From assembly GCA_964408995.1 (NCBI GenBank), contig CAYPBP010000001.1, forward strand, positions 74,823-138,822: a stretch of DNA of 64,000 nt. Reading direction: 5' to 3'. Shown in pieces: positions 13,091 to 44,163 of this stretch (position 1 is its first letter; each line of letters opens with the position of its first letter). The stretch is from an uncultured Gammaproteobacteria bacterium. Its GTDB lineage: Bacteria; Patescibacteriota; Microgenomatia; UBA12405. A program made the position numbers and the translations under genes. The notes under the pieces are model-generated. The model was not told the origin of the DNA and ran no database searches. It was given only the letters and a program-made list of their open reading frames with translations.

Positions 13091-13097
13091 TTTTAAC

Positions 13098-14381: not shown

Positions 14382-14411
14382 ATTTGTATTATATAACTAA
14401 ATATTTTTTAC

Positions 14412-15212: not shown

Positions 15213-15213
15213 A

Positions 15214-20591: not shown

Positions 20592-21476
20592 ATGGAATTT
20601 CATACCCCAGTTTTATTAAAAGAAACTATCGACCTTTTAAACGTCCAAAAAGACCATCTTTATATTGATGGCACCCTTGGTCATGGCGGTCACACTTTAG
20701 AAATTTTAAAAAATGGTGGTATAGTTTATGGCTTTGACCAAGACCCAAACAACCTAAAAATTGCTAAGAATAGAATTCAAGAAGCTGGTTTTGATAAACA
20801 GTTCTTTCCAATTCATGGCAATTTTAATCAATTAGAAAAAATTGTCACCACTAAAATCTTAAAAAAAGCTGATGGCTTACTAATTGATTTAGGCTTAAGT
20901 CAAAATCAACAAACAGCACAAGATAGGGGATTTTCTTTTAATGACAATAATTCTCTTGATATGCGTCTAGACCCAGAAAACCAAGAATTAACCGCCGAAG
21001 AAATTATTAATACTTATGACTATGACCAACTTTACGAAATTTTTAGCAAATATGGTCAAGAAGTCTACAGTAAACCAATAATTCTAAAAATAATAAGACA
21101 ACGCCAAAAATCACCAATTCAAACAGCCACCAGATTAGCTGATATTGTTAGAGAATTTTATAAAGAACGCCATATTAGATCAAAAATAGATCCTAGTACT
21201 AAAATATTTTTAAGTCTAAGAATTATTGTTAACGAGGAATTTAATAATTTAAAAGATATCCTAAATCAAAGTCTAAAAATTGTTAAACCAGATGCTAATG
21301 TTTGTATCATCACTTTCCATTCAGGTGAAGACAGGATTGTTAAACAATTTATCAAAGATAATTCTTTACAAAAGAAGATAATTGAAAATAAAAAACCAAT
21401 TAAAGCCAGCTTTGAAGAAATCAAAAAAAATCCTCTATCTCGCTCTGCCACCCTAAGATCTTATAGAATCGTATAG
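20592..21476 (+). CDS. rsmH: 16S rRNA (cytosine1402-N4)-methyltransferase
   Basis: HTPVLLKETIDLL...YIDGTLGHGGHT is the RsmH/MraW signature. It sits at the head of the dcw cluster. Confidence 0.9.
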   Translation: MEFHTPVLLKETIDLLNVQKDHLYIDGTLGHGGHTLEILKNGGIVYGFDQDPNNLKIAKNRIQEAGFDKQFFPIHGNFNQLEKIVTTKILKKADGLLIDLGLSQNQQTAQDRGFSFNDNNSLDMRLDPENQELTAEEIINTYDYDQLYEIFSKYGQEVYSKPIILKIIRQRQKSPIQTATRLADIVREFYKERHIRSKIDPSTKIFLSLRIIVNEEFNNLKDILNQSLKIVKPDANVCIITFHSGEDRIVKQFIKDNSLQKKIIENKKPIKASFEEIKKNPLSRSATLRSYRIV

Positions 21477-21747: not shown

Positions 21748-23400
21748 GTGTTAAAACAAAGATCAAAAATATTATCTATCACTCTAACTTTTTGTTTTGT
21801 TGTTGTTTCTTTTAGACTTTTTTATTGGCAAATAATAAAAGGTTATGAATTAAGTGAAAAAGCCAAAAACCAAACTTACAAACTAGAAAAAATAATCCCT
21901 AAACGAGGTCAAATATATTCATCGGACAATTTTCCTTTAGCTTTAAACAAAACTAGTTACCAGCTTTCCATTTACAAACCAAATTTAAAAGATAACTTAG
22001 ATAATGTTATTAATAATATCGACCAAGTTGTCCCCAATTTCAAACTTGAAAATAATATATCAATCGATAATATAAAGAATAATCCCAATCAAAAATGGAT
22101 GACTTTTAACTCTCTTTTAAATGAATTTCAGAAAGAACAATTAGAGCTCCCTGGTATTGAATTTCAAAAAATTGAAAAAAGATATTACCCAGAAGAACCA
22201 ATGGCCAAAGATATTATCGGTATAATTGGAAAAAACTATGAAGGTTCACCAATTGGCTATGGGGGACTTGAAGCTTTTTATCAAAAAAAACTAAAGGGTA
22301 AAACTGGTTTTGTTTGGGCTCCGCAAGATGCCGTTGGAAAAACCGTTTTAAACAAAAAAAGTTGGAGTTCTGAATCAGTAAGTGGTAGAAACATTTTTAC
22401 TTATATTAATCGCAGTGCTCAATTTTATGTTGAAAAATTACTTAAAGAAGGTATCACTCAATTTTCAGCTGATTCTGGATCGATAACAGTTATAGATCCC
22501 AAAACTGGAGCTATTATCGCCATGGCTTCTTTGACTAGCACTAGTTCGGCCACACCTAGTTCCAATATCAGAAACCCAGCTATTTCTGATCTATTTGAAC
22601 CAGGCTCAATTTTTAAACCAATTATAGTTTCTATGGCACTCGACGCCAAATCAATTGACACTGATTACATTTGCACCCAATGTGATCGACCAAATGTAAT
22701 TGGTAAAGATAACATCAGTAACTGGGATGGGGCACTTCACCCTAACTCCAGTCTTCAAGATATTATAAAAAATTCTGATAATATCGGCATGAGTCATATT
22801 ATTAGTAAACTTGGTCTTAAAAATTTTTTAAGTTATTATCAAAAACTTGGTCTTAGTCAAAAAACCGGTATCGATCTTCAAGGAGAATCTAAAGCATCTT
22901 TAAAAACGAAATGGCCAGACATAGACTTAGCCACTGCTTCCTTTGGTCAAGGTATAGTTGTCACTCAAATAAATATGCTTCAAGCTTTTAATGTCATTGC
23001 TAATGATGGTGTTTTGGTTAAACCAAAAGTTGCTAATTATTTTACCGAAGAAGATAAGATTATAAAAAATAAAAACCAAACAGAAACTCAAATTTTCAAA
23101 CCAGAAACTATAAAAAATATGAAAGACATTTTGAAATATTCAGTTGAAAATGGAGTTATTGCCAAACTAAAACCAAAAGATATTGAGGTTTGTGCCAAAA
23201 GTGGTACCGCCCAAATAGCTGTTAAAGGTAAATACTCTGATTCTTCAACCATTGCTTCTTACATTGGTTTTTCTCCATGTATTAACCCTAAGTTTACGAT
23301 GATTGTCACTATTAACAATCCTAAAACTTCTCCTTGGGGATCAAGTACGGCTGCCCCAATTTGGTATGATTTGGCCTCAAAGCTAAACTATTTGTTATAA
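21748..23400 (+). CDS. ftsI: penicillin-binding protein transpeptidase (FtsI/PBP2-like)
   Basis: N-terminal TM, a dimerisation domain, and a transpeptidase KSGTA (KTG-type) motif. Confidence 0.8.
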   Translation: MLKQRSKILSITLTFCFVVVSFRLFYWQIIKGYELSEKAKNQTYKLEKIIPKRGQIYSSDNFPLALNKTSYQLSIYKPNLKDNLDNVINNIDQVVPNFKLENNISIDNIKNNPNQKWMTFNSLLNEFQKEQLELPGIEFQKIEKRYYPEEPMAKDIIGIIGKNYEGSPIGYGGLEAFYQKKLKGKTGFVWAPQDAVGKTVLNKKSWSSESVSGRNIFTYINRSAQFYVEKLLKEGITQFSADSGSITVIDPKTGAIIAMASLTSTSSATPSSNIRNPAISDLFEPGSIFKPIIVSMALDAKSIDTDYICTQCDRPNVIGKDNISNWDGALHPNSSLQDIIKNSDNIGMSHIISKLGLKNFLSYYQKLGLSQKTGIDLQGESKASLKTKWPDIDLATASFGQGIVVTQINMLQAFNVIANDGVLVKPKVANYFTEEDKIIKNKNQTETQIFKPETIKNMKDILKYSVENGVIAKLKPKDIEVCAKSGTAQIAVKGKYSDSSTIASYIGFSPCINPKFTMIVTINNPKTSPWGSSTAAPIWYDLASKLNYLL

Positions 23401-23414
23401 TCAAATACTAGAAA

Positions 23415-24716
23415 ATGATACAGAAAATTAAAAACAACTTCTGGCATCTGCCTAAAAACTTTTTATTGAATATTAAATACGGTTTTCCCTCCAAAAAACT
23501 TATTTTAATTGGCATCACCGGCACAGATGGTAAAACTACCACTTGTACTCTTATTCATGAAATTTTAAGGAAATCTGGTATAAAAGCAGGTTTAATCAGC
23601 ACTATTTGTGCCAAGATTGAAGATAAAGAAATAAGCACTGGTTTACACACCACTTCTCCAGATCCAAGTCTAATTCAAAAAATTTTTATTGATATGATAA
23701 AAGCTGGTGTCACCCACGTTGTTTGTGAAGTAACTTCTCATGCTTTAGATCAAAATCGTTTTTTTGGTTGTAAATTCGAAGTTTCTGGTATCACTAATGT
23801 TTCCCATGAACATATGGATTACCATAAAACCATGACCAATTATATAAATGCTAAAGCTAAACTTTTTTCCATGTCAAAAAGTGCTATTTTAAATAAAGAT
23901 GATCAATCTTTTAATTTAATTAAAAAACAAATCAAAGTTCCCTTTAAAACATTCAGTATCAAAGATGATTCTGATTATCAAGCCAAAAAAATTAAATTAG
24001 ACGAAAATTCACTTAGTTTTGAAGTTAATGATCAAAAATTCATCACCGATAGTAACCAAGAATATCAAGTCTATAATATTTTATTAACTCTCGGCATTTG
24101 TCAAAAATTAAAAATAGATACTAACATAATTCAAGAAGTTATCAAAAAATTTCCCGAAACCAGAGGTCGACGTGAAGAAGTTGAGAATAATCTTAAGATA
24201 AAAACTATTATTGATTTTGCTCATACTCCAAACGCTCTATCTTCATCACTATCATCACTTAAAAAAACAACTAAAGGAAATCTTGTCGTTATTTTTGGAG
24301 CTACCGGAGGTAGAGACCAAAGTAAAAGGCCTAAAATGGGTGAAGTTGTTTCCAATATAGCCAATATTGCCATAATTACTTCAGATGATACTCGAAATGA
24401 AAAGATAGAAAACATTAATAAACAAATAATTAGTGGTATAGATCAAAAAAAATCAGAACTAATTGATCATCAAGAAATTAAAAATAAAAAACATCTTCAA
24501 AAAATAATTGAATTATCAAAACATAAATTTGTTTATTTTAATGTTCCCAATCGTCAAGATGCTTTCACTTTAGCTGTCAAACTAAGTCAACCTAGTGACA
24601 CTATTATTGCTTGTGGCAAAGGACACGAAAAAACTATCCTTCATGGCAATACTGAATATCCTTGGTCTGAAGCAGAAGCTTTTAGAACTGCTTTTAGACT
24701 TAGAAAAAATAAGTAA
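23415..24716 (+). CDS. murE: Mur ligase, probably UDP-MurNAc-L-Ala-D-Glu:diamino-acid ligase
   Basis: LIGITGTDGKTTT is the Mur-ligase P-loop. It follows ftsI, as murE does in dcw clusters. Confidence 0.65.
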   Translation: MIQKIKNNFWHLPKNFLLNIKYGFPSKKLILIGITGTDGKTTTCTLIHEILRKSGIKAGLISTICAKIEDKEISTGLHTTSPDPSLIQKIFIDMIKAGVTHVVCEVTSHALDQNRFFGCKFEVSGITNVSHEHMDYHKTMTNYINAKAKLFSMSKSAILNKDDQSFNLIKKQIKVPFKTFSIKDDSDYQAKKIKLDENSLSFEVNDQKFITDSNQEYQVYNILLTLGICQKLKIDTNIIQEVIKKFPETRGRREEVENNLKIKTIIDFAHTPNALSSSLSSLKKTTKGNLVVIFGATGGRDQSKRPKMGEVVSNIANIAIITSDDTRNEKIENINKQIISGIDQKKSELIDHQEIKNKKHLQKIIELSKHKFVYFNVPNRQDAFTLAVKLSQPSDTIIACGKGHEKTILHGNTEYPWSEAEAFRTAFRLRKNK

Positions 24717-24717
24717 T

Positions 24718-25314
24718 ATGAGTCAATTCAATATAAAAAACGATCAAAATATAGATAATAATTATCAAGCTGGTTTTCTTCCCCAAAGAAATGACAAGAA
24801 CTTATTTTATTTTCAAAGCAGTTGCCGTTCTAATTTAAACAACTTTAAGCTTAGCTCTGAGAATCGTCGAATTATTAATAAAACAGATAATTTTACTTTT
24901 GAAAAAATTGCCATCAATAATTTTGATTACAACTTTAAAATTCAAAAAGAAATTAACACTTGGGTAAAAAATTTAAAGTGGGATTTTCCTATAAGTTCAA
25001 TTAAAAACGTTTTTACTAATCATATTTTCAATTATGTTTATGTTTGGAAAAATGAGAATAATCAAATAATTGCTTATTCTCTCTGTTATTTTTCCCAAAA
25101 GATAAGTCACATTGCTTATGTTTTTTATAACCCAGATTGTGCTCATGGAAATTTACCAATCAGACTTGTCCTTCAAACTATTATTGATAGTCAACAATTA
25201 GGGCTTGAATATTGTTATTTAGGTCGTTTCTCAAAAGAAACTGGTTATTACAAAAGAAACATGCCTGGTTTTGAATATTTCGAAAATCAAAACTGGATTA
25301 AATATGAAAAATAA
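24718..25314 (+). CDS. Bpt/Ate1-like aminoacyl-tRNA--protein transferase family (GNAT fold) protein
   Basis: C-terminal YLGRFSKETGYYKRNMPGFEY resembles the ATE_C/Bpt motif (GYY...YK..F.P.E). Start set at ATG 24718, just after the murE stop. Confidence 0.4.
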   Translation: MSQFNIKNDQNIDNNYQAGFLPQRNDKNLFYFQSSCRSNLNNFKLSSENRRIINKTDNFTFEKIAINNFDYNFKIQKEINTWVKNLKWDFPISSIKNVFTNHIFNYVYVWKNENNQIIAYSLCYFSQKISHIAYVFYNPDCAHGNLPIRLVLQTIIDSQQLGLEYCYLGRFSKETGYYKRNMPGFEYFENQNWIKYEK

Positions 25315-25359: not shown

Positions 25360-26733
25360 ATGCATATACACATCTTAGGAATTGCTGGAACCATGACCGC
25401 CTCTCTGGCTGTAGCCCTTCAAAAAGAAGGTCACACCATCACTGGTTCTGATCAAGACAAAATTTATCCACCAGTAAGCACTATTTTAAAAAAAGCTAAT
25501 ATAGATATAAATTCTACTAAGATAAATAAAAATATAGATTTAGCTATAATCGGTTCTTCTTTTTCTAGTTTTCAAAAAACTAAAGAAGAATTTGAACAAA
25601 TTAAAAAACTAAAAATCAAATATATTTCAGCAAGCGTTTTTATTGCTCAAAATTTAATCAAAGAAAATTCTATTCTTATTGCTGGGACTTATGGCAAAAC
25701 CACTATCTCATCTTTAGTCTCTTGGGTTTTTAATCAATCAAATCTAAATCCCAATTATATGTTTGGTGGAGAAGCTATTAATCGCTTTCCAGCCACTAAC
25801 ATTTCATCCTCAGATTGGTCAATAATCGAAGCTGATGAATCAATTCATGGTTTAGATACTAAAGCCAAATTTCTTTATTACCCAGTTAAATACTTATTAT
25901 TAACCAGTGCCGATTGGGAACATAAAGATTCTTATAAAACTGAAATCGACAATTTTAATGCCTTTAAAGAATTGATTACCAATATCCAAAAAGATGGAAT
26001 TTTATTTATAAATTCCAATGGTTTTCATACCAAAGAATTAAGTCTTTATTCAAATTCAAAAATTATTACTTACAATTCCCCAACATCTGACTATTTTATT
26101 AAAAATATAAAAATTAAAAAGAATTACACTCTTTTAAATATTAGTACACCAAGGGAAATTATCCAAATTAAAACCAAGTTAATTGGTGATTTTAATTTTG
26201 AAAATATTTTAGCTGCCATTGCCATTACTGATACTTTTAATTTAAAACTAACCAACATCAAAAAAGCTGTTTTAAGTTTTAAAGGAATCAAACGTCGAAT
26301 TGAAAATGTCTCAACTAAAAATAATATTTTAATATTTGATGATTTTGCCCAATCAGCCAACCGAGTAGAATCAACCCTAAAAGCTATTCATTCTCACTTC
26401 CCTAAAAAAAATATTAAAGTTTTATACCAAGCTCATGCTTCTTTTATTCAATATAAAGAAAGTCTAAAAGATTTTAAAAATGCTTTTTTAAAAGCATCCC
26501 AAGTAGTTTTAACTCAATTAAACTATCAAAAAAATATAGATAAAAATCAACGAACTACAGTTAAAGATTTTAAAGAAACTATCGGAAACAAACTTGTATA
26601 TTTACCAACCGATAAAGAAGTCGTTGAGTTTTATAAAAAAAACCTAAACAAAAATGATGTTTTGATAAACATGAGTTCTGGTGGCTTTTATGGAAATAAA
26701 ATGATTAAATCTATTATCAACTCTTTAAAATAA
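25360..26733 (+). CDS. murC: Mur ligase, MurC/Mpl-like
   Basis: MHIHILGIAGTMTASLAVAL..GHTITGSD matches the MurC/Mpl N-terminus, and AGTYGKTT is the P-loop. Confidence 0.65.
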   Translation: MHIHILGIAGTMTASLAVALQKEGHTITGSDQDKIYPPVSTILKKANIDINSTKINKNIDLAIIGSSFSSFQKTKEEFEQIKKLKIKYISASVFIAQNLIKENSILIAGTYGKTTISSLVSWVFNQSNLNPNYMFGGEAINRFPATNISSSDWSIIEADESIHGLDTKAKFLYYPVKYLLLTSADWEHKDSYKTEIDNFNAFKELITNIQKDGILFINSNGFHTKELSLYSNSKIITYNSPTSDYFIKNIKIKKNYTLLNISTPREIIQIKTKLIGDFNFENILAAIAITDTFNLKLTNIKKAVLSFKGIKRRIENVSTKNNILIFDDFAQSANRVESTLKAIHSHFPKKNIKVLYQAHASFIQYKESLKDFKNAFLKASQVVLTQLNYQKNIDKNQRTTVKDFKETIGNKLVYLPTDKEVVEFYKKNLNKNDVLINMSSGGFYGNKMIKSIINSLK

Positions 26734-28069: not shown

Positions 28070-29104
28070 ATGATGCAATTATATCTAGGACTCCTACTTT
28101 TTTCATTTTTAATTACTAGTATTTTAGTAGTTCCATTTATCAATCTGCTTTATAAACTAAAATTTCAACGCCAACTTCAAAAAACAACTGATTTTCAAAA
28201 CAATAGAACTCCTATTTTTGATAAATTTCATAATCAAAAACAAGGTACACCTGTTGGTGGGGGTTTATTAGTTATTGTTTCTGTCTGTATTATTTTTGCC
28301 TTTCTTTTCCCAATTTTAAAGTTTTCTAACCTTTTTATTTCATCTAACTACAATATAACTCACGAATTAACTATTTTATTTTTTACCTTTATTAGTTTTG
28401 GGTTACTAGGTCTTTACGATGATATTTATAAATTCTTTGGTTTTAGTAAAACTGGTTTCTTTGGTCTAAAAATGTTTTATAAATTAGTTTTACAACTAAT
28501 TTTAGCTTTAATTATTTCTTCAATGATTTATTTTCAACTAGGTACTGATTTCATTTACATTCCTTTCTTAGGCATCATTAAACTAGGAATTTTCTTTATC
28601 CCTATTTCCACTCTTATCATTGCTGGTTTTGCTAATTTCTTTAATATTACCGACGGTCTAGATGGTCTTTCCTGTGGTTTATTAATGATTTCTCTCTTTG
28701 CTTTTTGGATACTAGCCAGCACTTCAATGGATACAGTCATTTCATCATTTCTTGCTCTCTGGATTGGCGCTTTAATCGCCTTTTTATATTTCAATGTTCA
28801 TCCGGCTAGAATTTGGTTAGGAGATGTTGGGGCCCTATCTTTTGGTGCCACTTTTGCAGTCATTGCTCTTTTGCTTGGCAAAATAGTTCCTTTAATTATT
28901 GTTGGAGCTCCTTTCCTAGTCGAAGGACTTTCCAGTGCCATTCAAATTCTTTCAAAAAAATTCTTAAAAAGAAAAATATTTCCAGCTGCTCCAATTCATT
29001 TAACTCTTCAACACCTTGGTTGGGAAGAAGATAAAATTGTTTTTAGGGCTTGGCTAGCTGGTATTATGTTAGCTATATTTGGACTATGGTTGGGAATAAA
29101 TTAA
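28070..29104 (+). CDS. mraY: phospho-N-acetylmuramoyl-pentapeptide transferase
   Basis: Polytopic, with the MraY motifs ITDGLDGL and GDVGALSFGA. Confidence 0.9.
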   Translation: MMQLYLGLLLFSFLITSILVVPFINLLYKLKFQRQLQKTTDFQNNRTPIFDKFHNQKQGTPVGGGLLVIVSVCIIFAFLFPILKFSNLFISSNYNITHELTILFFTFISFGLLGLYDDIYKFFGFSKTGFFGLKMFYKLVLQLILALIISSMIYFQLGTDFIYIPFLGIIKLGIFFIPISTLIIAGFANFFNITDGLDGLSCGLLMISLFAFWILASTSMDTVISSFLALWIGALIAFLYFNVHPARIWLGDVGALSFGATFAVIALLLGKIVPLIIVGAPFLVEGLSSAIQILSKKFLKRKIFPAAPIHLTLQHLGWEEDKIVFRAWLAGIMLAIFGLWLGIN

Positions 29105-29628
29105 CACAACTTAAAAAAGAAATTGAACATTATATTGGTTTGCCATATAGTAAAAATATTCTTAAAGATGGCAAAATAATCAAAGAACAATTTCTTGGGG
29201 GTAAGGGCAACTGTCGTCAAATTGCTACTGAAACCATTAGACTTGCCCAAAAACAAAAAATAGACCTACTCAAATTAACTAATCAAGAATTCTACAATTT
29301 TCAAAAAAAGAATCATCTTGGTATCGATTGTTCTGGTCTTGTTTGCCAACTACTCAATTTTTATTTTGAAACCAATTTAAATCCACGTAAAAACTCGGCT
29401 AACATGCTCACTTCTGCTCCACTTTCAAAAGAAATAAAAGAAGAAGATATTAAAACAGGGGATTTAGTTAGACAAAAAAACGGTCATCACGTTTTATTTA
29501 TAATTGAAAAACAAGGCAATATTATCAAATACGTTGATAGCTCTCGTGAAAACAGAGGAGTCAAATACGGTCAGTTTGACCTTCAAGACAAAACCTTTAA
29601 ACACCTTGGTTTCTATCGATTAAAATAA
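29086..29628 (+). CDS. NlpC/P60-family cysteine peptidase-like protein
   Basis: GIDCSGLVCQ catalytic Cys motif followed by a downstream His (GHHVLFI). The ORF track starts at 29050, inside mraY; a later start is more likely. Confidence 0.5.
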   Translation: MVGNKLTQLKKEIEHYIGLPYSKNILKDGKIIKEQFLGGKGNCRQIATETIRLAQKQKIDLLKLTNQEFYNFQKKNHLGIDCSGLVCQLLNFYFETNLNPRKNSANMLTSAPLSKEIKEEDIKTGDLVRQKNGHHVLFIIEKQGNIIKYVDSSRENRGVKYGQFDLQDKTFKHLGFYRLK

Positions 29629-29640
29629 ATTCACAAATGT

Positions 29641-29662
29641 ACCCCCGCAGCTGCGGGGGTAC
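29641..29662. terminator. perfect 20-bp GC-rich palindrome (ACCCCCGCAGCTGCGGGGGT), a candidate bidirectional terminator between the convergent P60 gene and the lysW-like gene
   Basis: The perfect hairpin is visible directly in the sequence. It is GC-rich in a roughly 28% GC background, and the flanks are moderately T-rich on both strands. Confidence 0.45.
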
Positions 29663-29676
29663 ATTTAATTAATTAC

Positions 29677-29835
29677 TTATTTTTCTTCAACCAACTCTCT
29701 ATATTTCAAAGGATCTAAAGATATAATTTCCACTTCAGTGCCACATTCAAGGCATTCAACTATATCTCCAACCATAGTTTCTTTTTGTAATTTAATTTCA
29801 GATTTACAATCTGGGCAAACAACTTTATCGTTCAT
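29677..29835 (-). CDS. LysW-like zinc-ribbon amino-group carrier protein (52 aa)
   Basis: This ORF is absent from the six-frame track because it is under 60 aa. Translation: MNDKVVCPDCKSEIKLQKETMVGDIVECLECGTEVEIISLDPLKYRELVEEK. The CPxC...GD-VEC-EC...E-E pattern matches LysW/ArgW, e.g. Thermus ...GELVVCEDCGAELEVVGLDPL..., and the tail is acidic. Confidence 0.55.
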   Translation of the reverse strand: MNDKVVCPDCKSEIKLQKETMVGDIVECLECGTEVEIISLDPLKYRELVEEK

Positions 29836-29875
29836 GTTTTATTAAAATTAATAACTAGTATAATTAAGCTATTAT

Positions 29876-30697
29876 ATGGCAAACACACCTTTAATTAAAT
29901 TAGAGAATATATATTTCAAAAGAGAAGATTTAAATGAAACTGGCTCAGCCAAAGATAGGGCTATTATTTTTCAAATAGAAAATCTAAAAAAACAAGGCTA
30001 TAAACAAGCTGTAATTTCTAGTACCGGCAACGCCGCCATCTCCGCTTCCTATTTTTGCCATCTAAATAATATCGAATTAACTGTCTTTTTATCTCCCAAA
30101 GTCAACCAAAACAAATTAAACCTAATTAAAAAATACCCTTGCCAAATAATTTTTTCCAAAAAAGCCATCAGTGACGCTATAAAATTTTCTAAAAAAAATA
30201 ACAGTTATCTGCTTCGCCAATCAACCGATCCTAGTGCCTTAATTGGTTATCAAGAAATTGGTAAAGAATTATTAAAAGAATTACCTCAAATCACCAGTGT
30301 TTTTGTTCCAGTTGGTAGTGGTGCTACTCTTTTAGGAATTTCCCAATCCTTAAATCCATCAGTTAAAATTTTTGCCATTCAACCAGCCAGTAATTGCCCT
30401 TTATCACAATATTTTGATAAAGATTATGAAAAAGAAACAGAAAATATCACTGACGCCATTTCTGTAAAATACCTACCTCTTAAACCACTTATTATTTCTA
30501 CCATCAAAAATAGCCAAGGAAATGGATTAATTGTTAAAAACAAAAATATTTTAGAAGCTCAAAAAGAACTAGAAACAAATCAAATTAAAACTTCTCTTGA
30601 AGGAGCCATGGCTTTTGCTGGCCTAAAAAAAGCTATTGATAACAAATTAGAAATAGGCAATTACCCAGTCATACTTTTAACCGGATGTCAAAGATAA
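29876..30697 (+). CDS. PLP-dependent fold-type II enzyme (threonine synthase/cysteine synthase-like)
   Basis: KREDLNETGSAKDR is the PLP-lysine motif N-P-T-G-S-x-K-D-R. STGNAAIS and VGSGATLLGI are the phosphate-binding loops. It is short at 273 aa. Confidence 0.6.
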   Translation: MANTPLIKLENIYFKREDLNETGSAKDRAIIFQIENLKKQGYKQAVISSTGNAAISASYFCHLNNIELTVFLSPKVNQNKLNLIKKYPCQIIFSKKAISDAIKFSKKNNSYLLRQSTDPSALIGYQEIGKELLKELPQITSVFVPVGSGATLLGISQSLNPSVKIFAIQPASNCPLSQYFDKDYEKETENITDAISVKYLPLKPLIISTIKNSQGNGLIVKNKNILEAQKELETNQIKTSLEGAMAFAGLKKAIDNKLEIGNYPVILLTGCQR

Positions 30698-31797
30698 ATT
30701 TAGAAACTATTATTAACGAGTCTCCATATGTTTTTTATTTTTTAGTTGTCGATAAGTTTTTAGACATCAGTTTACCTCAACTTAAAAATTTTCATAAAAT
30801 TTATCTTTCTGATTATCCATCTATAAAAATTAAAAACAGTGGCAAACTTTTGGCAAACCAACAGGTTAAAGAATATATAAAATTAACTTCAAAGTCATTA
30901 ACTCCAGTTATAATTCCCTTTAAACCATCGGCAAAAATTGATATTTTATGTCAAAAAAATAATTGGATTAACGCCAGTAATCCTGGCCCAATTAATCGAT
31001 TTTTAGAAGATAAAATTAAATTTGCTAAACTCTGTCAAAATAAAAAACTCCCAACCCTTCCTTTCTCTCTTGACACTTTTTCTGAAAATAACTTTCTAAA
31101 ATATCAAAAAAAATACAATCAAAAATTAGTTATTCAAACTCATTTTGGTTGGGCAGGGAATAGTACTTTTTCAGCCTCATCTTGGGATGAAATAAAAGAT
31201 AAGATAGAAATCGACACTATGGTTAAATATAGCCCATTTATTGAAGCTTCCTATTCTCTTTTAAACAATTGCTGTCTAACTAAATTTGGATTAATTCAAA
31301 GTCCAATAGCTCTGCAATACACTGGCATCAAACCTTTCACTAAAAATCCTTTTACTACTGTTGGTCGTCAATGGCCTTGTTTTGCTCCACCAAAAATAAT
31401 TAAAAAAACTCAAAAAATAACTCAAAAGTTTTCTAAAATTTTAAAAGAAATTGGCTATAAAGGCTTCTTTGGACTCGACTTTTTAATTAATAAAAACCAA
31501 GTCTTTTTATTAGAATGCAACCCCAGGTTAACTGCTTCTTTTGCTTTTTATACCCAACTAGAACAACTTCAAAACATTAATCCTCTTTTCTATTTTCATT
31601 TAGTCGAATTTTTAAAAATTAATTATCGTCCAAATATAAAATTCGAACAATCTCGTTTTAAAAATAAAAAAATTATTGGTTCTGAACTTACAATTAAAGA
31701 TAAAAATAATAATACCAAAAAGAAGCTTAATTTCTTTTATCCTTTGTCTCTCACCAACAATCCTATTTCTATTTCTCTAAATTTAAATGAAAAATAA
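30685..31797 (+). CDS. ATP-grasp family ligase of unknown specificity
   Basis: GFFGLDFLINKNQVFLLECNPRLTAS is an ATP-grasp C-terminal motif. It overlaps the PLP gene by 13 nt, so the two are likely translationally coupled. Confidence 0.55.
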   Translation: MSKINLETIINESPYVFYFLVVDKFLDISLPQLKNFHKIYLSDYPSIKIKNSGKLLANQQVKEYIKLTSKSLTPVIIPFKPSAKIDILCQKNNWINASNPGPINRFLEDKIKFAKLCQNKKLPTLPFSLDTFSENNFLKYQKKYNQKLVIQTHFGWAGNSTFSASSWDEIKDKIEIDTMVKYSPFIEASYSLLNNCCLTKFGLIQSPIALQYTGIKPFTKNPFTTVGRQWPCFAPPKIIKKTQKITQKFSKILKEIGYKGFFGLDFLINKNQVFLLECNPRLTASFAFYTQLEQLQNINPLFYFHLVEFLKINYRPNIKFEQSRFKNKKIIGSELTIKDKNNNTKKKLNFFYPLSLTNNPISISLNLNEK

Positions 31798-32962
31798 TAA
31801 ATCACCATTATTATTTTTAGTCTTTAGTTTAATTTTCATTGGCATTATTTTTATTTCCGTATCTTCACTTGGTGAAGCTAGTTCCACTGTTGGCGATAAA
31901 TTTTTATTCATAAAAAAACAAGCATTTTGGCTTACCTTGGGAATAATTTGTTATTACATAACTTCAAAACTAAAAATCGAAACTATAAAAAAATTTGCTT
32001 TCATTTTTTATGCTATTTCCATATTAGGATTAATATTAGTATTAATTCCTGGTTTTGGTAACGAAGCTCTAGGCGCCAAACGTTGGCTTAATTTAGGTTT
32101 TACCAGTATTCAGCCATCAGAAATAGTAAAACTTAGCTCTATTATTTATTTTTCTTATCTTTTTGCCAAAGAAGAAAAACGTCATATAAAAAATCTTATT
32201 TTTTATTTAGGAATTCCTTTTCTTTTGATTATAGTTGAGCCAAATTTAAGTACTGCTATTTTAGTTTCAGCCATCGTTGGTTCAATTTATTATCTTTCGG
32301 GTGGTGAAGTATTTCCATTATTAGGTATGGTTGTTCTAATTTTATTATTAAGCATTCCTCTAATCTTTTTATCTCCCTATCGATCAGCCAGATTAAAAAC
32401 TTTTTTAGAACCACAACAAAACCAAAGTGGTGCTTCCTATCATAGTAATCAAATCATACTAACCCTTTCCTCTGGAGGACTTTTTGGAAAAGGTTTTGCC
32501 AACTCAGACCAAAAATATAAATTTTTACCCAAAATATCAACTGACTCAATTCTGGCCGTAATTGGTGAAGAAATTGGTTTTGTCGGTATTTTTGTAGTTC
32601 TTTTAATTTATCTTTCTTTGATAAATTATCTTCTTAAATTTTCTCAAACTATAGACGATCCATTTCAAAGTTTATTAGTCTCGGGAACTGCTTGTTGGAT
32701 TGCTTATCAAAGCTTAATAAATATTTCTGCTATTGCCGCTCTAATTCCTTTAACTGGAGTTCCTCTTCCTTTTATTTCCTATGGTGGATCATCTCTTCTA
32801 ACTCTTTTTATTGCCATTGGTTTGGTTAGAAATGTCGAAAAAAATCAAAAAACACTGATATACTTAAAGGGTGATCAGCACCAAAATCAAAAAAACAATC
32901 ATCATCACCGGGACTCATCTCACTCCAGCCCTAGAACTCATCAGACAATTACAAAAAGATAA
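31787..32962 (+). CDS. ftsW: SEDS-family cell division protein FtsW
   Basis: Polytopic FtsW/RodA-family protein lying between mraY and murG. It has a His-rich C-terminal tail. Confidence 0.8.
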   Translation: MKNNKSPLLFLVFSLIFIGIIFISVSSLGEASSTVGDKFLFIKKQAFWLTLGIICYYITSKLKIETIKKFAFIFYAISILGLILVLIPGFGNEALGAKRWLNLGFTSIQPSEIVKLSSIIYFSYLFAKEEKRHIKNLIFYLGIPFLLIIVEPNLSTAILVSAIVGSIYYLSGGEVFPLLGMVVLILLLSIPLIFLSPYRSARLKTFLEPQQNQSGASYHSNQIILTLSSGGLFGKGFANSDQKYKFLPKISTDSILAVIGEEIGFVGIFVVLLIYLSLINYLLKFSQTIDDPFQSLLVSGTACWIAYQSLINISAIAALIPLTGVPLPFISYGGSSLLTLFIAIGLVRNVEKNQKTLIYLKGDQHQNQKNNHHHRDSSHSSPRTHQTITKR

Positions 32963-38287: not shown

Positions 38288-39283
38288 ATGTCTAGATCCT
38301 TGTGGCTACCAACTCTAATCAGCTTAACCGTTTTCTTTTCTATCAACATTCTAATGGTAGCTTCTGTTGCTCCAAATTCAGTTTTAAAACAATTAGCCGC
38401 TTGGGTAATTGGTTTAATTTTATTTTTCATCGGCAAACAAATCAATTTAAAACAACTTGGTTCATATAAATGGCCAATTTTTATCGCTTGTTGTGTTTTA
38501 CTTCTAATTCCAATTTTGTTTAACAGTGTTACTCGCGGATCTCGACAATGGATTTATATTGGTAATCAAAGTATCCAACCATCAGAAATAGTTAGACCTT
38601 GGCTAATGTCTTTTTTGGCTACCACTAATCTTCCTTTTCTACATGCAATTCCAGTAGGCATAATCATGGGCCAACCAGATTTTGGCAGTGCTATTTCTGT
38701 TTTCTTTTTAATTATCCCTGTAATTTTGTATAACAAAAAATTACTTAAAATATCTATCTTGATTGGACTTATTTTTATTTTAATTTCTCCCTTAATTTAT
38801 AAATATGGCCTTCGCAGTTATCAACAAAATCGAATTTTAACTTTTATAGACCCGAAAGCTGATCCACTGGGTAAAGGTTACAACGTTATTCAATCTCAAA
38901 TTGCCATTGGTTCTGGTGGTTTCTTTGGCAAAGGTTGGAAAAAGGGGACTCAAGGACAATTATTATTCTTACCCGAAAAACACAGTGATTTTATGTTTGC
39001 TACTACCGCCGAAGAACTTGGTATAGTTGGCATCTTAATTGTTTTATCTGCCTACTATTTATTAATCAGCACCCTTTTTAATAAAGCTTTTTCCACTAAA
39101 AACCGAGCCCTATTTATTTTTACTCTTGGCATTGCTATTCAAATTTGGATGCAAACTTTTGTCAATATTGGAATGAACATTGGCATCTTACCAGTCACTG
39201 GAATTCCTCTTCCTTTTATCTCTGTTGGCGGATCATCTTTAATGACTTTTCTTTTTTCATTAGGTATTGCCTATTCATCATAA
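38288..39283 (+). CDS. rodA: SEDS-family protein RodA-like
   Basis: Second FtsW/RodA-family polytopic protein. The C-terminal GIPLPFISVGGSSL motif is shared with ftsW. Confidence 0.75.
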   Translation: MSRSLWLPTLISLTVFFSINILMVASVAPNSVLKQLAAWVIGLILFFIGKQINLKQLGSYKWPIFIACCVLLLIPILFNSVTRGSRQWIYIGNQSIQPSEIVRPWLMSFLATTNLPFLHAIPVGIIMGQPDFGSAISVFFLIIPVILYNKKLLKISILIGLIFILISPLIYKYGLRSYQQNRILTFIDPKADPLGKGYNVIQSQIAIGSGGFFGKGWKKGTQGQLLFLPEKHSDFMFATTAEELGIVGILIVLSAYYLLISTLFNKAFSTKNRALFIFTLGIAIQIWMQTFVNIGMNIGILPVTGIPLPFISVGGSSLMTFLFSLGIAYSS

Positions 39284-41545: not shown

Positions 41546-41619
41546 GGTTGTTTAGCTCAGTTGGTTAGAGCGTTCCGTTCACATCGGAGAGGTCACAGGT
41601 TCGAGTCCTGTAACAACCA
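41546..41619 (+). tRNA. tRNA-Val (anticodon CAC)
   Basis: Manual cloverleaf: acceptor GGTTGTT/AACAACC, D-arm GCTCAGTTGGTTAGAGC, anticodon loop TTCACAT, T-arm ACAGGTTCGAGTCCTGT. No encoded CCA. Confidence 0.85.
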
Positions 41620-44130
41620 CTTTCTCATTGAATTAAAATTAAAGCTTTTAATTAATACTTCATTTCCATAATTCATAGCCACAAAATTATTAGCACAAAC
41701 ATTTGAATAATCTTTTTTGTTTATATTAATTTTGTTAGTTTTTAAAAGATCATCCATATCTTGATAACTCATAGCCACCATTTCACTATTAATAATCTTT
41801 TTACTATTTAAGCTAATTAAAAATCCAATTACCCCTTGGTAATCACTAATTTTTTTAAAACCATAATTAGCTAAATTTTTTGAACAAGTATTTGTCAAAG
41901 ACATCCAAATAGTTGAATTATCAATAATTTTTTGACTAACAATTCTTTCATTTTTCCTTAATCTAAAATTAAAAATACTTCCAATTAAAAGTCGTGATTG
42001 ATTCTTGTCTAAAAATTTTAAAGCATTTTTTAAATCAATATCGTTTTTATTAGAAACTAATAATGATTCAATATCCGATTTAATCATTGATTTCAAAAAT
42101 AAAACATTATTTTTTTCATTAATAATTTGTCCATCAATAGCATCAATTTTTATAGTCCCAATTTCTCCATTAACAACATTCTTTTCCCAATAAGACCAAT
42201 TATTATCATTAGTATTACCTGCCACCACATGCATCAAACCATTTCCAGTCCCAATAAAGTTAATATTACAATATTGGTAATTCTTATTCTTAATAATTAC
42301 AAAACCATCCTTTTCTAAAACAGGGGAATCATTACCACACTTAACTGAGTAATTAACTGGTGAACCCACAAAAACAACTACACTATTAGTTAAATCCTGA
42401 TTCTGAGTAATTACATTAACCTGACTTAACCCAATTTCTATCATTACCTGGTTAACAGTTTTATCAACAATATCACCATGATTACTATTAATCTCTATAA
42501 AGTTATTTCCTTTATAGTTAGCACTTTTAGTTAAAACTGTGCCATCACCGTTATTTGTATGTAAAATATTTTTAATTCTTCCATCTGGCCAAATTCCTAA
42601 AATTTTATCAAAAATACTATTATTTGTAAGTTCAACAGAACTCATAGTTTTATAATCTTTTCCAGAAAATAATTTAATCCCCGAAATTGAAGCAACTTGA
42701 TTTTTACTCATTAAAAAATTATTTTTTGTTTCCAACTTACTATTAGATAAAACAACTCCATTCTTTTTAACAAAATCAAAAGTTGGCAATAAATCTTTTA
42801 TTATTGGAGAATATTTTCTGGCTGCTGCCATATCACTTTTTTGATTTAAACCTTGAATCTTTAATAAAATTTTAAAAGCAATTGAACTAATATTAGACAA
42901 ATCAGAAATTTGACCACCATTCCAAACCTCATAACCATCAACTGATCCCAAATGTGGACTTCCAAGAGTTATAACCTTTTCTAATCTAGAATCATTTCTA
43001 TTATCTTCAGCCCAAATTCTAGAAGTCACTCCACCAAGACTATGACCAACTAAAATAACTTTTTCATTTGATGTAACTTTTTGATTAATAAAAATATTTA
43101 AATTAGCTACAATATCAACCAAAGGTTTTCTCCAATCATAATTCCAAACATAAAAATCTTCATTTTCCTTTAAACCATTTTGTTTTAATCCATTTATCAA
43201 CGCATCATAATTTGTTACAAAAGGTGTCATTTTCCATTTATCATTACCAACTGATTTATTGTAAACAATCGCATCCGAATTCCAACTAGCTCCCAACCCT
43301 GGAACAATAATAATTTTTGTTTTTGGGGTAGGAATTGGTGTAGGTGTTGGAGTTGGAGTTGGAATTATTGTTGGAGTAGGAGTAGGTGTGGGGGTGGGAG
43401 TGGGAGTAAAGGTTGGTGTTGGGGTAGGAGTTGGTGTTGGGGTAGGAGTTGGTGTTGGGGTAAGAGTTGGAACATTAAAATCACTAACAATCAAATTATC
43501 GAATAAATTTTTAGTCGATCTCTTAGAATAGTCACCTCCCCAATTAAAAAATCCAAAACTCCCAGCTAAAATAGGATTTTCATCATCAAAATCAATTATC
43601 AAAACTGAATCAAAATATATTTTGATATTAGAATCATCAACTTTAATTTCAACCAAATGAAACTGATTCTGAGTTAATTTATTTTCAAAATCATCAAAAG
43701 AATCTAATATTGTATAACCTGAAGCATAATTATATTTCATCAAAACAATCTTGCCACCATCTTGGGGCCAATAAGGATCTTTGTATCTTACACCTAATAT
43801 ATAATATTCTTTTCTATCCTCAGAAACTCTAAAAACAATATTTTGATCTACCCCAGTCTCATTTAGAGCATCAACTTTTATATAATAATTAGATAAATTC
43901 CAAAAAGATTTCGCTAACAAAAAAGAAGATCCTCCACGACTTACTTCTCCTACAAGTTTATTATCAACAATTTTCCAACCATCTGGATTAGAATTAGCAT
44001 TAATAAAAATCCAATTATCTAAATTGTTTTGATCAAAATTATCAAAAAAATAATTAACTCCAAGAACTGAATTAACATTAAATATAAATGTTAAAATTAG
44101 AATAGATATAAATAATATTTTTGTTTTCAT
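41593..44130 (-). CDS. large secreted protein with an N-terminal LamG/DUF1080-like domain, a (PT)n linker and an alpha/beta-hydrolase (lipase/LCAT-like) domain
   Basis: Signal peptide MKTKILFISILILTFIFNVNS. PTPTPTPTP linker of about 45 residues. GHSLGG nucleophile elbow. The C-terminal 9 codons are antisense to tRNA-Val. Confidence 0.55.
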   Translation of the reverse strand: MKTKILFISILILTFIFNVNSVLGVNYFFDNFDQNNLDNWIFINANSNPDGWKIVDNKLVGEVSRGGSSFLLAKSFWNLSNYYIKVDALNETGVDQNIVFRVSEDRKEYYILGVRYKDPYWPQDGGKIVLMKYNYASGYTILDSFDDFENKLTQNQFHLVEIKVDDSNIKIYFDSVLIIDFDDENPILAGSFGFFNWGGDYSKRSTKNLFDNLIVSDFNVPTLTPTPTPTPTPTPTPTPTFTPTPTPTPTPTPTIIPTPTPTPTPIPTPKTKIIIVPGLGASWNSDAIVYNKSVGNDKWKMTPFVTNYDALINGLKQNGLKENEDFYVWNYDWRKPLVDIVANLNIFINQKVTSNEKVILVGHSLGGVTSRIWAEDNRNDSRLEKVITLGSPHLGSVDGYEVWNGGQISDLSNISSIAFKILLKIQGLNQKSDMAAARKYSPIIKDLLPTFDFVKKNGVVLSNSKLETKNNFLMSKNQVASISGIKLFSGKDYKTMSSVELTNNSIFDKILGIWPDGRIKNILHTNNGDGTVLTKSANYKGNNFIEINSNHGDIVDKTVNQVMIEIGLSQVNVITQNQDLTNSVVVFVGSPVNYSVKCGNDSPVLEKDGFVIIKNKNYQYCNINFIGTGNGLMHVVAGNTNDNNWSYWEKNVVNGEIGTIKIDAIDGQIINEKNNVLFLKSMIKSDIESLLVSNKNDIDLKNALKFLDKNQSRLLIGSIFNFRLRKNERIVSQKIIDNSTIWMSLTNTCSKNLANYGFKKISDYQGVIGFLISLNSKKIINSEMVAMSYQDMDDLLKTNKININKKDYSNVCANNFVAMNYGNEVLIKSFNFNSMRKWLLQDSNL

Positions 44131-44163
44131 AAACACAGTTTAAATGTAAATTATTTACTAAAT

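Follow-up and report, generated by a model that had tools for sequence, protein, structure and literature searches.

The dcw clusters of Microgenomates, ultra-small bacteria of the CPR, contain a widespread module of four genes, usually between mraY and ftsW, which encode a zinc-ribbon protein of the LysW fold, a short PLP enzyme derived from threonine synthase, an ATP-grasp ligase, and an NlpC/P60-like amidase. The evidence in hand consists of homology, intact catalytic motifs, an invariant tail on the small protein, conserved synteny, gene fusions, and linkage to mur genes, and the gene context points to a link with the peptidoglycan stem peptide, residue 2 in particular. We propose that the module is a carrier system serving cytoplasmic stem-peptide synthesis, and we hold tentatively, as a real possibility that is still open to doubt, that it runs a load-modify-release cycle on the tail lysine to supply a stem-peptide amino acid, most plausibly D-Glu. 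Covalent tethering to the carrier tail is suggested by analogy with LysW. The original prediction, made from the sequence of this region, had called the system undescribed, and literature searches returned no account of a LysW-like/PLP/ATP-grasp/NlpC-P60 module.

In the window (the whole 64-kb stretch of DNA that was analyzed), the three predicted ORFs and their dcw surroundings were found where they had been placed, with coordinates, strands, and motifs confirmed (Table 1). Upstream of the module lie rsmH, ftsI, murE, an ATE-like gene, a murC/mpl-like gene, murA, mraY, and the P60-like gene itself, and downstream lie ftsW, murG, an ftsQ-like gene, ftsA, and ftsZ. The plus-strand pair does overlap as predicted, with 13 nt shared between the PLP enzyme and ATP-grasp genes, and the ATP-grasp gene overlaps ftsW by 11 nt. 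The hairpin between the convergent 3' ends of the P60-like and LysW-like genes resembles a bidirectional terminator, and promoter-like hexamers, which are consensus matches only, occur on both strands of the divergent intergenic region. All four module proteins are small or of modest size, with no signal peptide or membrane segment visible by eye in any of them.

Table 1. Positions of the module genes and intergenic features in the window.
Feature	Position	Strand	Description
NlpC/P60-like cysteine amidase, cytoplasmic	29086-29628	plus	candidate release/reversal enzyme
Hairpin	29634-29667		15-bp G+C-rich stem; from terminator scan and sequence read
LysW-like ORF	29677-29835	minus	52 aa; CPDC and CLEC pairs; tail -LVEEK
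Divergent intergenic region	29836-29875		40 bp between LysW-like and PLP enzyme start codons
PLP enzyme	29876-30697	plus	273 aa; includes KREDLNETGSAKDR
ATP-grasp ligase	30685-31797	plus	370 aa; includes LLECNPRLTAS; candidate loading enzyme

The P60-like, LysW-like (always on the minus strand), PLP enzyme, and ATP-grasp genes occur together in 66 of the 67 Shapirobacteria loci with enough upstream sequence; ftsW is directly next in 71/71 loci and mraY lies upstream in 60/60. Despite rearrangements, dcw clusters of the Woesebacteria type and of other Patescibacteria also carry all four genes, and the head-to-head arrangement of the LysW-like and PLP enzyme genes is kept in every lineage examined. 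An NlpC/P60 domain is fused to the ATP-grasp C-terminus in four representative clusters (P0299, P0318, P0352, and P0384), and PLP enzyme::ATP-grasp fusions occur in some genomes, for instance as one ORF in L033. These fusions were re-tested with Pfam, and a metagenome scan with the fusion family gave 11 confirmed loci only. The originally predicted triad is therefore real and syntenic as far as its three genes go, but linkage and the ATP-grasp fusions make the unit one of four genes, NlpC/P60 included. A GNAT domain fused to the ATP-grasp in P0373 had no BLAST similarity to the ATE-like neighbor, and we draw no link between the two. The ATP-grasp relatives L085 and L105, which are more remote, have unrelated gene neighborhoods, and the module association holds only for the inner ATP-grasp family.

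The 52-aa ORF has 72 orthologues among 80 species-level loci, whose codon differences fall mostly at position 3 (48060, vs 24073 and 14650 at positions 1 and 2), and half of the differing codons are synonymous. Because of the orthologues and the codon-position pattern, we conclude that it is a conserved coding gene and no chance ORF; together with the 66/67 gene order, this bears out the conservation and synteny on which the prediction had depended. The globular domain of its product is a four-Cys zinc ribbon of the LysW fold, as judged by Pfam (PF21344, 49.1 bits; gathering score 27), by PDB sequence search (LysW matches at E=2e-8, to Thermus LysW, and 4e-7), and by a Foldseek search with an AF2 model, for which the best five matches were LysW chains (TM 0.62-0.68). 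The mean pLDDT of this model is 78, lower over residues 41-52. The predicted LysW identity was upheld by these searches but not by the curated family models, with 40.3 bits against the TIGR01206 lysW model (cut-off 53.2) and 33 bits against the archaeal LysW/ArgW model NF041070 (cut-off 75). Orthologues in public records have already been automatically named 'lysine biosynthesis protein LysW'.

The hallmark LysW tail, which we take to be -EDWGE with the terminal Glu carrying the substrate, is absent from the LysW-like orthologues and from the sister-lineage copies. The tail is instead -EEK in 117 of 120 cluster representatives and in the 72 locus orthologues, barring rare EQK and ETK, and other lineages have EEEK, EDEK, or DEGK, always with a Lys after acidic residues. 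The terminal Glu had been suggested as the attachment point, and the conserved feature of the tail turns out to be Lys. In the -EEKG tail of one lineage the alpha-carboxylate of the Lys is blocked, and in DEGK the residue immediately before the Lys is Gly and not Glu; both variants make the Lys side chain a better candidate for the functional group than a terminal Glu.

The tail also bears on whether the small protein could be a true LysW-type amino-group carrier, to which an amino acid would be joined by its alpha-amino group at a tail Glu (E50 or E51), modified at its distal end, and released as a diamino or other non-canonical stem-peptide amino acid. We consider this unlikely, if worth keeping in view. 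The small protein does have the LysW fold and sequence, every lineage seen retains one Glu or more among the last four residues, the linkage of carrier and ATP-grasp parallels lysX/lysW, and an amidase able to release a product is present. Against it stand the loss of -EDWGE, the invariant terminal Lys, and the Gly that precedes it in DEGK, as well as an ATP-grasp that is not of the RimK/LysX type. There is also no kinase, reductase, aminotransferase, or M20 hydrolase resembling LysZ, LysY, LysJ, or LysK adjacent to the module, confirming the earlier observation at every locus examined, where the neighbors are dcw and module genes. The sole modifying enzyme is a fold-type II PLP enzyme, which needs the free alpha-amino group that such a linkage would block.

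The ATP-grasp protein has the ATP-grasp fold, the Mg/ATP-binding residues, and invariant catalytic motifs, and is catalytically intact by these marks. Its structural class is that of biotin carboxylase, PurK, and the L-amino-acid ligases. L-amino-acid and peptide ligases rank among its top structural neighbors, but similarity leaves its substrate unfixed, since the scores of PurK and biotin carboxylase equal or exceed those of the ligases BesA and PylC. The LysX-like partner ligase of the original prediction did not hold up, as family HMM models and structural ranking rejected a LysX/RimK/ArgX-type enzyme and placed the protein in another ATP-grasp clade. We also weighed whether it is a divergent D-Ala-D-Ala ligase whose neighbors are coincidental, a reading prompted by the lack of ddl in the Shapirobacteria cluster or the window and by weak local Ddl HMM matches (E about 1e-4). 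This reading is effectively refuted on three grounds: the HMM match is confined to a stretch of about 40 residues at the shared ATP-grasp motif (PF07478, E=0.068; TIGR01205, E=3.6e-4 and 19.6 bits against a cut-off of 246), the structural ranking speaks against it, and a bona fide Ddl (Dala_Dala_lig_N plus Dala_Dala_lig_C) occurs together with the ATP-grasp family in L082-84 and L086. The earlier caveat that the ligase might prove to be a plain Ddl thus did not materialize, a full-length match to the Ddl N- and C-domains being missing.

The PLP enzyme scores 164 bits against Pfam PALP, and its predicted ThrC-like nature was supported by a PDB profile search in which threonine synthases, the closest solved family, came first (2zsj, 2d1f, and 6cgq; E about 1e-23). 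It shares with ThrC the K-D-R Schiff-base motif (Lys K26) and the S-(S/T)-G-N-A-A motif, here SSTGNAA, and keeps the Gly-rich loop. It nonetheless fails ThrC membership: its best NCBIfam matches are archaeal-type threonine synthase families, all far under their cut-offs (the best ThrC-family score being 98 bits vs a cut-off of 358), and in the 2zsj alignment the Arg of the ThrC NSxNPxR motif, which binds the substrate phosphate in ThrC, is opposite Ala. A different Arg, R114, is invariant. Longer sister-lineage copies retain a GIWRY...LGEG N-terminus that we take to be ThrC-like, and the Shapirobacteria enzyme is without these roughly 40 N-terminal residues. From its profile matches and motifs, we consider the protein to be a short fold-type II enzyme derived from threonine synthase, with the phosphate-binding Arg replaced. 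We know of no ThrC-type racemase, and the fold-type II racemases known to us stem from the dehydratase branch.

The fourth protein scores 27.1 bits against Pfam NLPC_P60 (PF00877; gathering score 23). Its ORF opens at 29050, and the conserved start is the Met at 29086 (Met13). Its motif G-I-D-C-S-G-L-V and a His further downstream show no variation among 71 orthologues, and the DCSG motif and His are also kept in sister-lineage homologues, which adjoin the LysW-like gene there as well (31% identity in L081, 29% in L082). A PDB sequence search returned spurious repeat-protein matches only; the Pfam match and the motifs argue for a member of the NlpC/P60 papain-like family with conserved catalytic Cys and His. 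This family is best known for cutting gamma-D-glutamyl bonds, a specificity that is not common to all of its enzymes.

The module lies between mraY and ftsW in Shapirobacteria, L081, L086, L087, and L095, where a dcw cluster of the E. coli type has murD. In the fusion lineage, the gene immediately before the module encodes a ligase that scores above the TIGR01087 murD cut-off (228 vs 212 bits); this combination of MurD-type ligase and module was found in two contigs (L088 and L093), whose ligases are 45% identical. Elsewhere the LysW-like/PLP pair adjoins the MurC/Mpl-like ligase. This Rossmann-type ligase stays below the cut-offs of both the MurC and the Mpl model, and its Mpl score comes close to its MurC score (237 vs 181 bits for the copy in the window, 235 vs 221 for that of L082). 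No other Mur ligases, Ddl, or MurB were found in the window or, at cluster level, in the 80 Shapirobacteria loci (about 21 kb each), and no MurD-type gene was found in module-carrying Microgenomates dcw clusters. MurF and Ddl, and also MurE, are retained alongside the module in sister-lineage clusters, so the module is no general stand-in for murF or ddl. The original suggestion that it occupies the slot of murD, murF, and ddl therefore survives in the usual murD position and not for the other two genes; likewise, the proposed stem-peptide role is backed by peptidoglycan linkage in several lineages, but not as a substitution for MurF or Ddl. A simple replacement of MurD is weakened by the MurD-type neighbor in L088 and L093.

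The same context would suit an ATP-grasp that acts directly on a soluble peptidoglycan precursor, by replacing MurD, by adding a side-chain or bridge residue in the manner of the D-aspartate ligase Asl, or by providing the MurC/Mpl-like ligase with a dipeptide. The PLP enzyme would then supply a D- or otherwise unusual amino acid, the LysW-like protein would be a non-covalent adaptor or regulator, and the P60-like protein would trim or proofread. The occupied murD slot, the absence of murD from Microgenomates clusters, and the ligases among the top structural neighbors are consistent with direct action. ATP-grasp and Mur ligases have acyl-phosphate chemistry in common, and the enterococcal asl-racemase operon, which pairs an ATP-grasp with a racemase and modifies the Lys epsilon-amine of a precursor, offers a precedent. 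Direct action leaves unexplained the strictly conserved tail and the constant linkage of the LysW-like and PLP genes, MurD replacement fails where a MurD-type ligase adjoins the module, and the ligase::amidase fusion suggests that both enzymes work on one bond. On balance we find direct action improbable, though a serious contender.

Salvage of muropeptides, in which the P60-like and MurC/Mpl-like proteins would recycle scavenged fragments and the ATP-grasp and PLP enzymes would re-tailor them, seems to us very improbable. CPR bacteria rely on hosts for building blocks, and the nearly equal Mpl score and the P60-like protein without a visible signal peptide fit such a scheme; the conserved carrier tail would have no part in it, and the MurE, MurF, and Ddl kept in sister clusters indicate that de novo assembly is evidently in use.

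The ATP-grasp::NlpC/P60 fusions recall glutathionylspermidine synthetase/amidase, where one polypeptide combines a domain for ATP-dependent amide formation with a papain-like amidase (CHAP/NlpC/P60-type), both acting on the same amide bond. The fusions repeat this logic with the domain order reversed; the known enzyme has no carrier protein and no PLP enzyme, and its substrates are unrelated to those of the module. This resemblance also raises the prospect of reversible modification of the small protein, with the ATP-grasp adding residues to the tail, the P60-like enzyme removing them, and the modified zinc-ribbon protein regulating cell-wall synthesis or division. Residues are added in this manner by RimK on S6 and by tubulin ligases, the opposed activities of glutathionylspermidine synthetase and amidase are comparable, and an acidic tail is conserved on a protein encoded within the dcw cluster. 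We rate regulation of this kind as improbable, for it leaves no role for the PLP enzyme, which is always linked and in some genomes even forms a fusion with the ATP-grasp.

In the carrier cycle that we favor, the ATP-grasp would turn the carboxyl of a free amino acid into an acyl phosphate and join it to the epsilon-amino group of the terminal Lys on the carrier's acidic, flexible tail. The likeliest substrate would be the gamma-carboxyl of L-Glu, so that the tethered residue would retain a free alpha-amino acid end. The PLP enzyme, needing a free alpha-amino group, could then work on the tethered residue, most likely by inversion at C-alpha to the D form, and the P60-like amidase would cut the isopeptide bond, so that the product goes on to the MurD-type step and the carrier can be loaded again. 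Since ATP is spent and release would be stereoselective, the conversion would be one-way. This cycle would account for module membership as seen in co-occurrence, in rearranged clusters with the same four genes, and in natural fusions; for a LysW fold and similarity, with the tail modeled less confidently; for Lys-ending acidic tails across lineages beside invariant ligase motifs; and for the murD position with its MurD-type or MurC/Mpl-like neighbors. The small protein has a pI of 4.4 and the three enzymes have pIs of 9.3-9.7, which would suit an acidic carrier among basic enzymes but is weak evidence in an AT-rich genome.

Several points count against the cycle. A ThrC-type racemase would be without known example, NlpC/P60 enzymes are not uniformly specific for gamma-D-Glu, and structural neighbors do not fix the ATP-grasp substrate. 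Four genes for the job of one MurI would be unparsimonious in reduced genomes, which may hint at chemistry more complex than epimerization. If D-Glu is the product, the absence of a MurD-type gene from Microgenomates clusters implies that the user of free D-Glu is encoded elsewhere.

Both halves of the proposed chemistry have counterparts among ATP-grasp ligases: BesA makes a gamma-glutamyl amide, a temporary handle in amino-acid tailoring, and PylC joins an amino acid to the epsilon-amine of lysine by acylation. Their identity to the module's ATP-grasp is only 9-11%, and they act on free amino acids, whereas the module ligase would act on a protein tail. An ATP-consuming, one-way L-to-D route to peptidoglycan D-Glu has a precedent in MurD2/MurL of Xanthomonas, which brings D-Glu into the stem peptide in bacteria without MurI (PMC8788868). 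The MurD2/MurL genes, like the module in L088 and L093, are next to a MurD-type ligase; for the module, a D-Glu role is one that we propose. There is no protein homology between MurD2/MurL and the module, and MurL epimerizes UDP-MurNAc-dipeptide and, unlike the proposed cycle, needs no carrier, PLP enzyme, or amidase.

The LysW/ArgW amino-group carriers of Thermus, Sulfolobus, Thermococcus, and Streptomyces share the fold, a zinc ribbon of some 50 residues whose globular domain is 38-48% identical, and are likewise acidic proteins with a flexible C-terminal tail, linked to an ATP-grasp and a potential release hydrolase. The module differs in its -EEK/-EDEK/-DEGK tail, about five residues shorter in alignments, in an ATP-grasp of another clade, in having a ThrC-derived PLP enzyme and an NlpC/P60 amidase as partners in place of the kinase, reductase, aminotransferase, and M20 hydrolase, and in lying within the dcw cluster, in organisms from which amino-acid synthesis is not expected. 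It varies the amino-group-carrier idea, with an invariant tail of another kind and an entirely different set of enzymes, the chemistry being proposed. To our knowledge, LysW-type carriers have an established role only in the biosynthesis of lysine and arginine and in a few secondary-metabolite pathways of Streptomyces. In the module, a protein of the LysW fold is fixed in the cell-wall and division cluster of a large uncultivated radiation with few amino-acid biosynthesis genes. If it belongs to a carrier system, the carrier-protein principle would extend to peptidoglycan precursor synthesis, the source of a stem-peptide residue, perhaps D-Glu, could be explained, and the module would be a lineage-specific, essential-looking target.

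A bolder version, which we think rather unlikely, is that Microgenomates make or assemble part of the stem peptide on a protein carrier, replacing the MurI supply and possibly MurD. Glu, probably, would hang by a side-chain isopeptide bond on the terminal Lys of the LysW-fold protein, the ThrC-derived PLP enzyme would invert or tailor it, and the NlpC/P60 amidase would release it or hand it to the Mur ligases. In its most radical form, the odd neighbors of the module, namely the ATE-like putative aminoacyl-tRNA transferase, the MurC/Mpl-like ligase, and the MurE-like enzyme, would be adapted to a protein-tethered rather than a UDP-tethered substrate. The MurE-like enzyme is without its N-terminal domain, as is a MurF-like enzyme in sister lineages.

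The module lies in an AT-rich window (G+C content 30.8%) whose closest homologues carry the name Candidatus Shapirobacteria (Microgenomates, CPR). Every motif quoted in the original prediction, which had described a LysW-like carrier, a ThrC-like PLP enzyme and an ATP-grasp ligase inside the dcw cluster, was found in this sequence. The LysW-like ORF and the PLP enzyme gene are arranged head-to-head, 40 bp apart, and on its other side the ORF is separated from the tail-to-tail NlpC/P60-like gene by a hairpin with a 15-bp stem.

Features of the dcw cluster and its embedded module in the window
Feature	Position	Strand	Remark
rsmH	20592-21476	+	dcw cluster
ftsI	21748-23400	+	dcw cluster
MurE without N-terminal domain	23415-24716	+	profile match begins at ~position 75-97
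ATE_C-like gene	about 24718-25314 (listed ORF 24595-25314)	+	Pfam ATE_C
MurC/Mpl-like ligase	25360-26733	+	under both curated cut-offs
murA	between MurC/Mpl-like ligase and mraY	+	
mraY	28070-29104	+	
NlpC/P60-like gene	29086-29628	+	
LysW-like 52-aa ORF	29677-29835	-	sole minus-strand gene of the dcw cluster
PLP enzyme	29876-30697	+	
ATP-grasp	30685-31797	+	
ftsW	31787-32962	+	followed by murG, ftsQ-like gene, ftsA, ftsZ

The three genes originally proposed as a unit are indeed linked, but the unit was drawn too small: the NlpC/P60-like gene is a fourth member, found with the other three in 66 of 67 Shapirobacteria loci. Its product has a conserved start at Met13, invariant Cys (of the DCSG motif) and His residues, and no visible signal peptide. 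An exhaustive profile search returned 189 representative clusters of the ATP-grasp family at E<=1e-30, and the best 150 of these include four fusions of the ATP-grasp ligase to an NlpC/P60 domain and one of the PLP enzyme to the ATP-grasp ligase. At the loci encoding fusion proteins (L088, L093 and L092), a minus-strand LysW-like gene and a PLP enzyme gene lie directly upstream. The ligase-amidase fusions are built like glutathionylspermidine synthetase/amidase, in which a ligase and an amidase act on one bond from one polypeptide, and by this analogy they would fit two enzymes working on a single bond. One of the main rivals to the carrier cycle described below, reversible modification of the small protein, belongs with this observation. 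The PLP enzyme and ATP-grasp ligase also form one ORF in a Shapirobacteria assembly (L033, 1775-3655) and in a JGI/NCBI contig (L089, 3-2045, cluster P0307), possibly as a natural fusion or, in L033, through a frameshift.

A sister ATP-grasp family (~450 aa) occurs in other Microgenomates, including Woesebacteria, with its partners unchanged: a P60-like homologue (29-31% identity), an opposite-strand LysW-like gene and the PLP enzyme. In one Woesebacteria-type cluster (L082), a SAM-dependent methyltransferase and a minus-strand murB split the PLP enzyme from the ATP-grasp ligase (8142-8867), and an 81-aa ORF follows the latter (11342-11587).

The proposed resemblance of the small ORF to LysW was borne out by a 49-bit match to Pfam Zn_ribbon_LysW (gathering score 27), the second-best zinc-ribbon family in Pfam being nine orders of magnitude worse. 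PDB matches were to Thermus and Thermococcus LysW chains (E=2e-8 and 4e-7), and a fold search with the AF2 model (pLDDT 78, lower at residues 41-52) returned LysW chains as the five best hits (TM 0.62-0.68). The protein scores under the curated cut-offs of both NCBIfam LysW models. We found 72 orthologues in 80 species-level loci, and the concentration of their nucleotide differences on codon position 3 indicates a real gene under purifying selection. Public records name orthologues automatically as 'lysine biosynthesis protein LysW'. In the sister-lineage locus L081 the gene (8864-9091, minus) is uncalled because an over-extended PLP gene call, running ~100 codons upstream, covers it; public gene calls probably understate how many such small carrier genes exist.

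In 117 of 120 cluster representatives the carrier tail terminates as -E-E-K (of the other three, two read past an intact EEK and one ends EQK). Almost every one of the 72 locus orthologues does likewise, with EQK and ETK as rare exceptions. More distant loci end in -EEEK (L081, L082, L086, L095), -TEEK (L088), -EDEK (L093), -DEGK with Gly before Lys (L097 8222-8464 and L104 17199-17363, both minus) or -EEKG, where Lys is not terminal (L087 8818-8979, minus). What stays constant is a Lys that is terminal or next to the C-terminus and follows acidic residues, whereas LysW ends in Glu within the motif EDWGE. A main alternative is a true amino-group carrier with a tail Glu as the attachment site; the DEGK and EEKG variants weakly suggest that the functional group is instead the Lys side chain, not the penultimate Glu or the terminal carboxylate.

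For the PLP enzyme, the expected similarity to ThrC was recovered when the family profile was searched against the PDB, with threonine synthases first (E ~1e-23) and threonine/serine dehydratases and racemases next. Sister-lineage enzymes keep an N-terminal GIWRY...LGEG, which we take to be ThrC-like and which the Shapirobacteria form has lost. Together these similarities indicate a ThrC-derived enzyme. The Schiff-base Lys and PLP-binding motifs are invariant. The Arg of the ThrC NSxNPxR loop, which binds the substrate phosphate, aligns with Ala, so that O-phosphohomoserine is probably not used; another Arg is invariant.

The ATP-grasp ligase is catalytically intact, with invariant residues D265, E277, N279 and R281. 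It matches only generic ATP-grasp models and NCBIfam PRK06524 'biotin carboxylase' (104 bits vs a cut-off of 684), and Foldseek places its confident AF2 model (pLDDT 94.6) nearest to biotin carboxylase, PurK and PurT, with lower scores for Ddl structures (~19), LysX/ArgX (16.9) and RimK (15.8). On this structural ranking and the generic profile matches we rejected both a LysX-type ligase and a Ddl. Woesebacteria-type loci carry the module alongside bona fide Ddl and MurF, which also rules out the module as a Ddl replacement. Distant paralogues have unrelated gene contexts; one (P0330, in L105 3643-10930) accompanies a second ATP-grasp, a 7TM-transglutaminase protein, MATCAP, FGase and GNAT, in what looks like a different peptide-modification system.

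In Shapirobacteria and in the sister loci L081, L086, L087 and L095, the module sits between mraY and ftsW, where clusters of the classical dcw arrangement have murD. Sister clusters encode MurA, MurB, a MurC/Mpl-like ligase, MurE, MurF, often Ddl, MraY and MurG, and no MurD-type ligase is present in L081, L086, L087, L095 or the Woesebacteria-type clusters. Immediately upstream of its LysW-like gene, the fusion lineage carries a gene that exceeds the curated murD cut-off (228.5 vs 212 bits), and a 45%-identical MurD-type copy occupies the same position in another contig; in other lineages the LysW-like/PLP pair adjoins a MurC/Mpl-like ligase. Another main rival has the ligase using UDP-MurNAc precursors as its direct substrates and the small protein serving as an adaptor. 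MurB, MurD, MurF and Ddl homologues are absent from the window and from all 80 Shapirobacteria dcw loci at the level of the cluster, which is not readable as absence from the genome since MurB is also among those missing.

We tentatively propose, from these sequence features, a load-modify-release cycle on the tail Lys, a reading that is possible though short of probable. The ATP-grasp ligase would load an amino acid onto this Lys, linked by its side chain or a carboxyl so that its alpha-amino group stays free, as fold-type II PLP enzymes require; the PLP enzyme would then alter the tethered residue, and the P60-like amidase would free it from the carrier. Within this cycle, Glu is the likeliest substrate and D-Glu the likeliest product, although this specific chemistry is a more doubtful suggestion than the cycle itself. 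It draws on the repeated location of the module at the MurD position or beside a MurD-type gene, on the gamma-D-glutamyl specificity that many NlpC/P60 enzymes typically show, and on the presence, among the ATP-grasp ligase's structural neighbours, of enzymes that form gamma-glutamyl bonds or acylate Lys. The D-Glu reading also has a precedent in MurD2/MurL, which converts the Glu of peptidoglycan from L to D in one direction only, driven by ATP (PMC8788868). Muropeptide salvage is a further main rival to the carrier cycle.

Full-text literature searches yielded no paper joining LysW-like proteins with dcw clusters, CPR bacteria, NlpC/P60 or ThrC-like enzymes, and public annotation of the module genes is automatic only. 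The module resembles AmCP systems in its carrier fold and in the logic of pairing a carrier with an ATP-grasp ligase but differs in every other membership feature tested; it is therefore a variant of a carrier-type system and falls outside the LysW pathway family.

Other genes of the cluster are also unusual. The window MurE exceeds the TIGR01085 cut-off despite its late profile start, from which we infer that it lacks the N-terminal domain, which in classical MurE binds the UDP moiety (counterparts: L081 142-1332, L082 3153-4373, L087 164-1369); MurF-like genes of sister lineages start late too (~position 70). The ATE_C-like gene, resembling arginyl/leucyl-tRNA-protein transferase (NCBIfam arginyltransferase E 1e-6 to 5e-12), is always flanked across Microgenomates by murE and the murC/mpl-like gene (L081 1340-2131, L082 4370-5155, L087 1366-2151) and may provide an aminoacyl-tRNA-dependent step of stem-peptide synthesis. 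The MurC/Mpl-like ligase, the sole Rossmann-type Mur ligase of the window cluster, scores 237 bits against MurC (cut-off 335) and 181 against Mpl (cut-off 389), with near-equal scores in L082 (235 and 221), and its substrate may be other than plain L-Ala.

Elsewhere in the window, a purine-synthesis block (purM-like, purT, purQ, purL) occupies 11975-18144; the usual description of CPR bacteria is that they cannot synthesize nucleotides. A second SEDS protein, RodA-like (274 bits, cut-off 337), is encoded at 38288-39283, ~1.5 kb downstream of ftsZ, and an 847-aa protein at 41593-44136 (minus) combines a long Pro-Thr repeat linker with a GHSLGG lipase/esterase-type motif recognized by eye.
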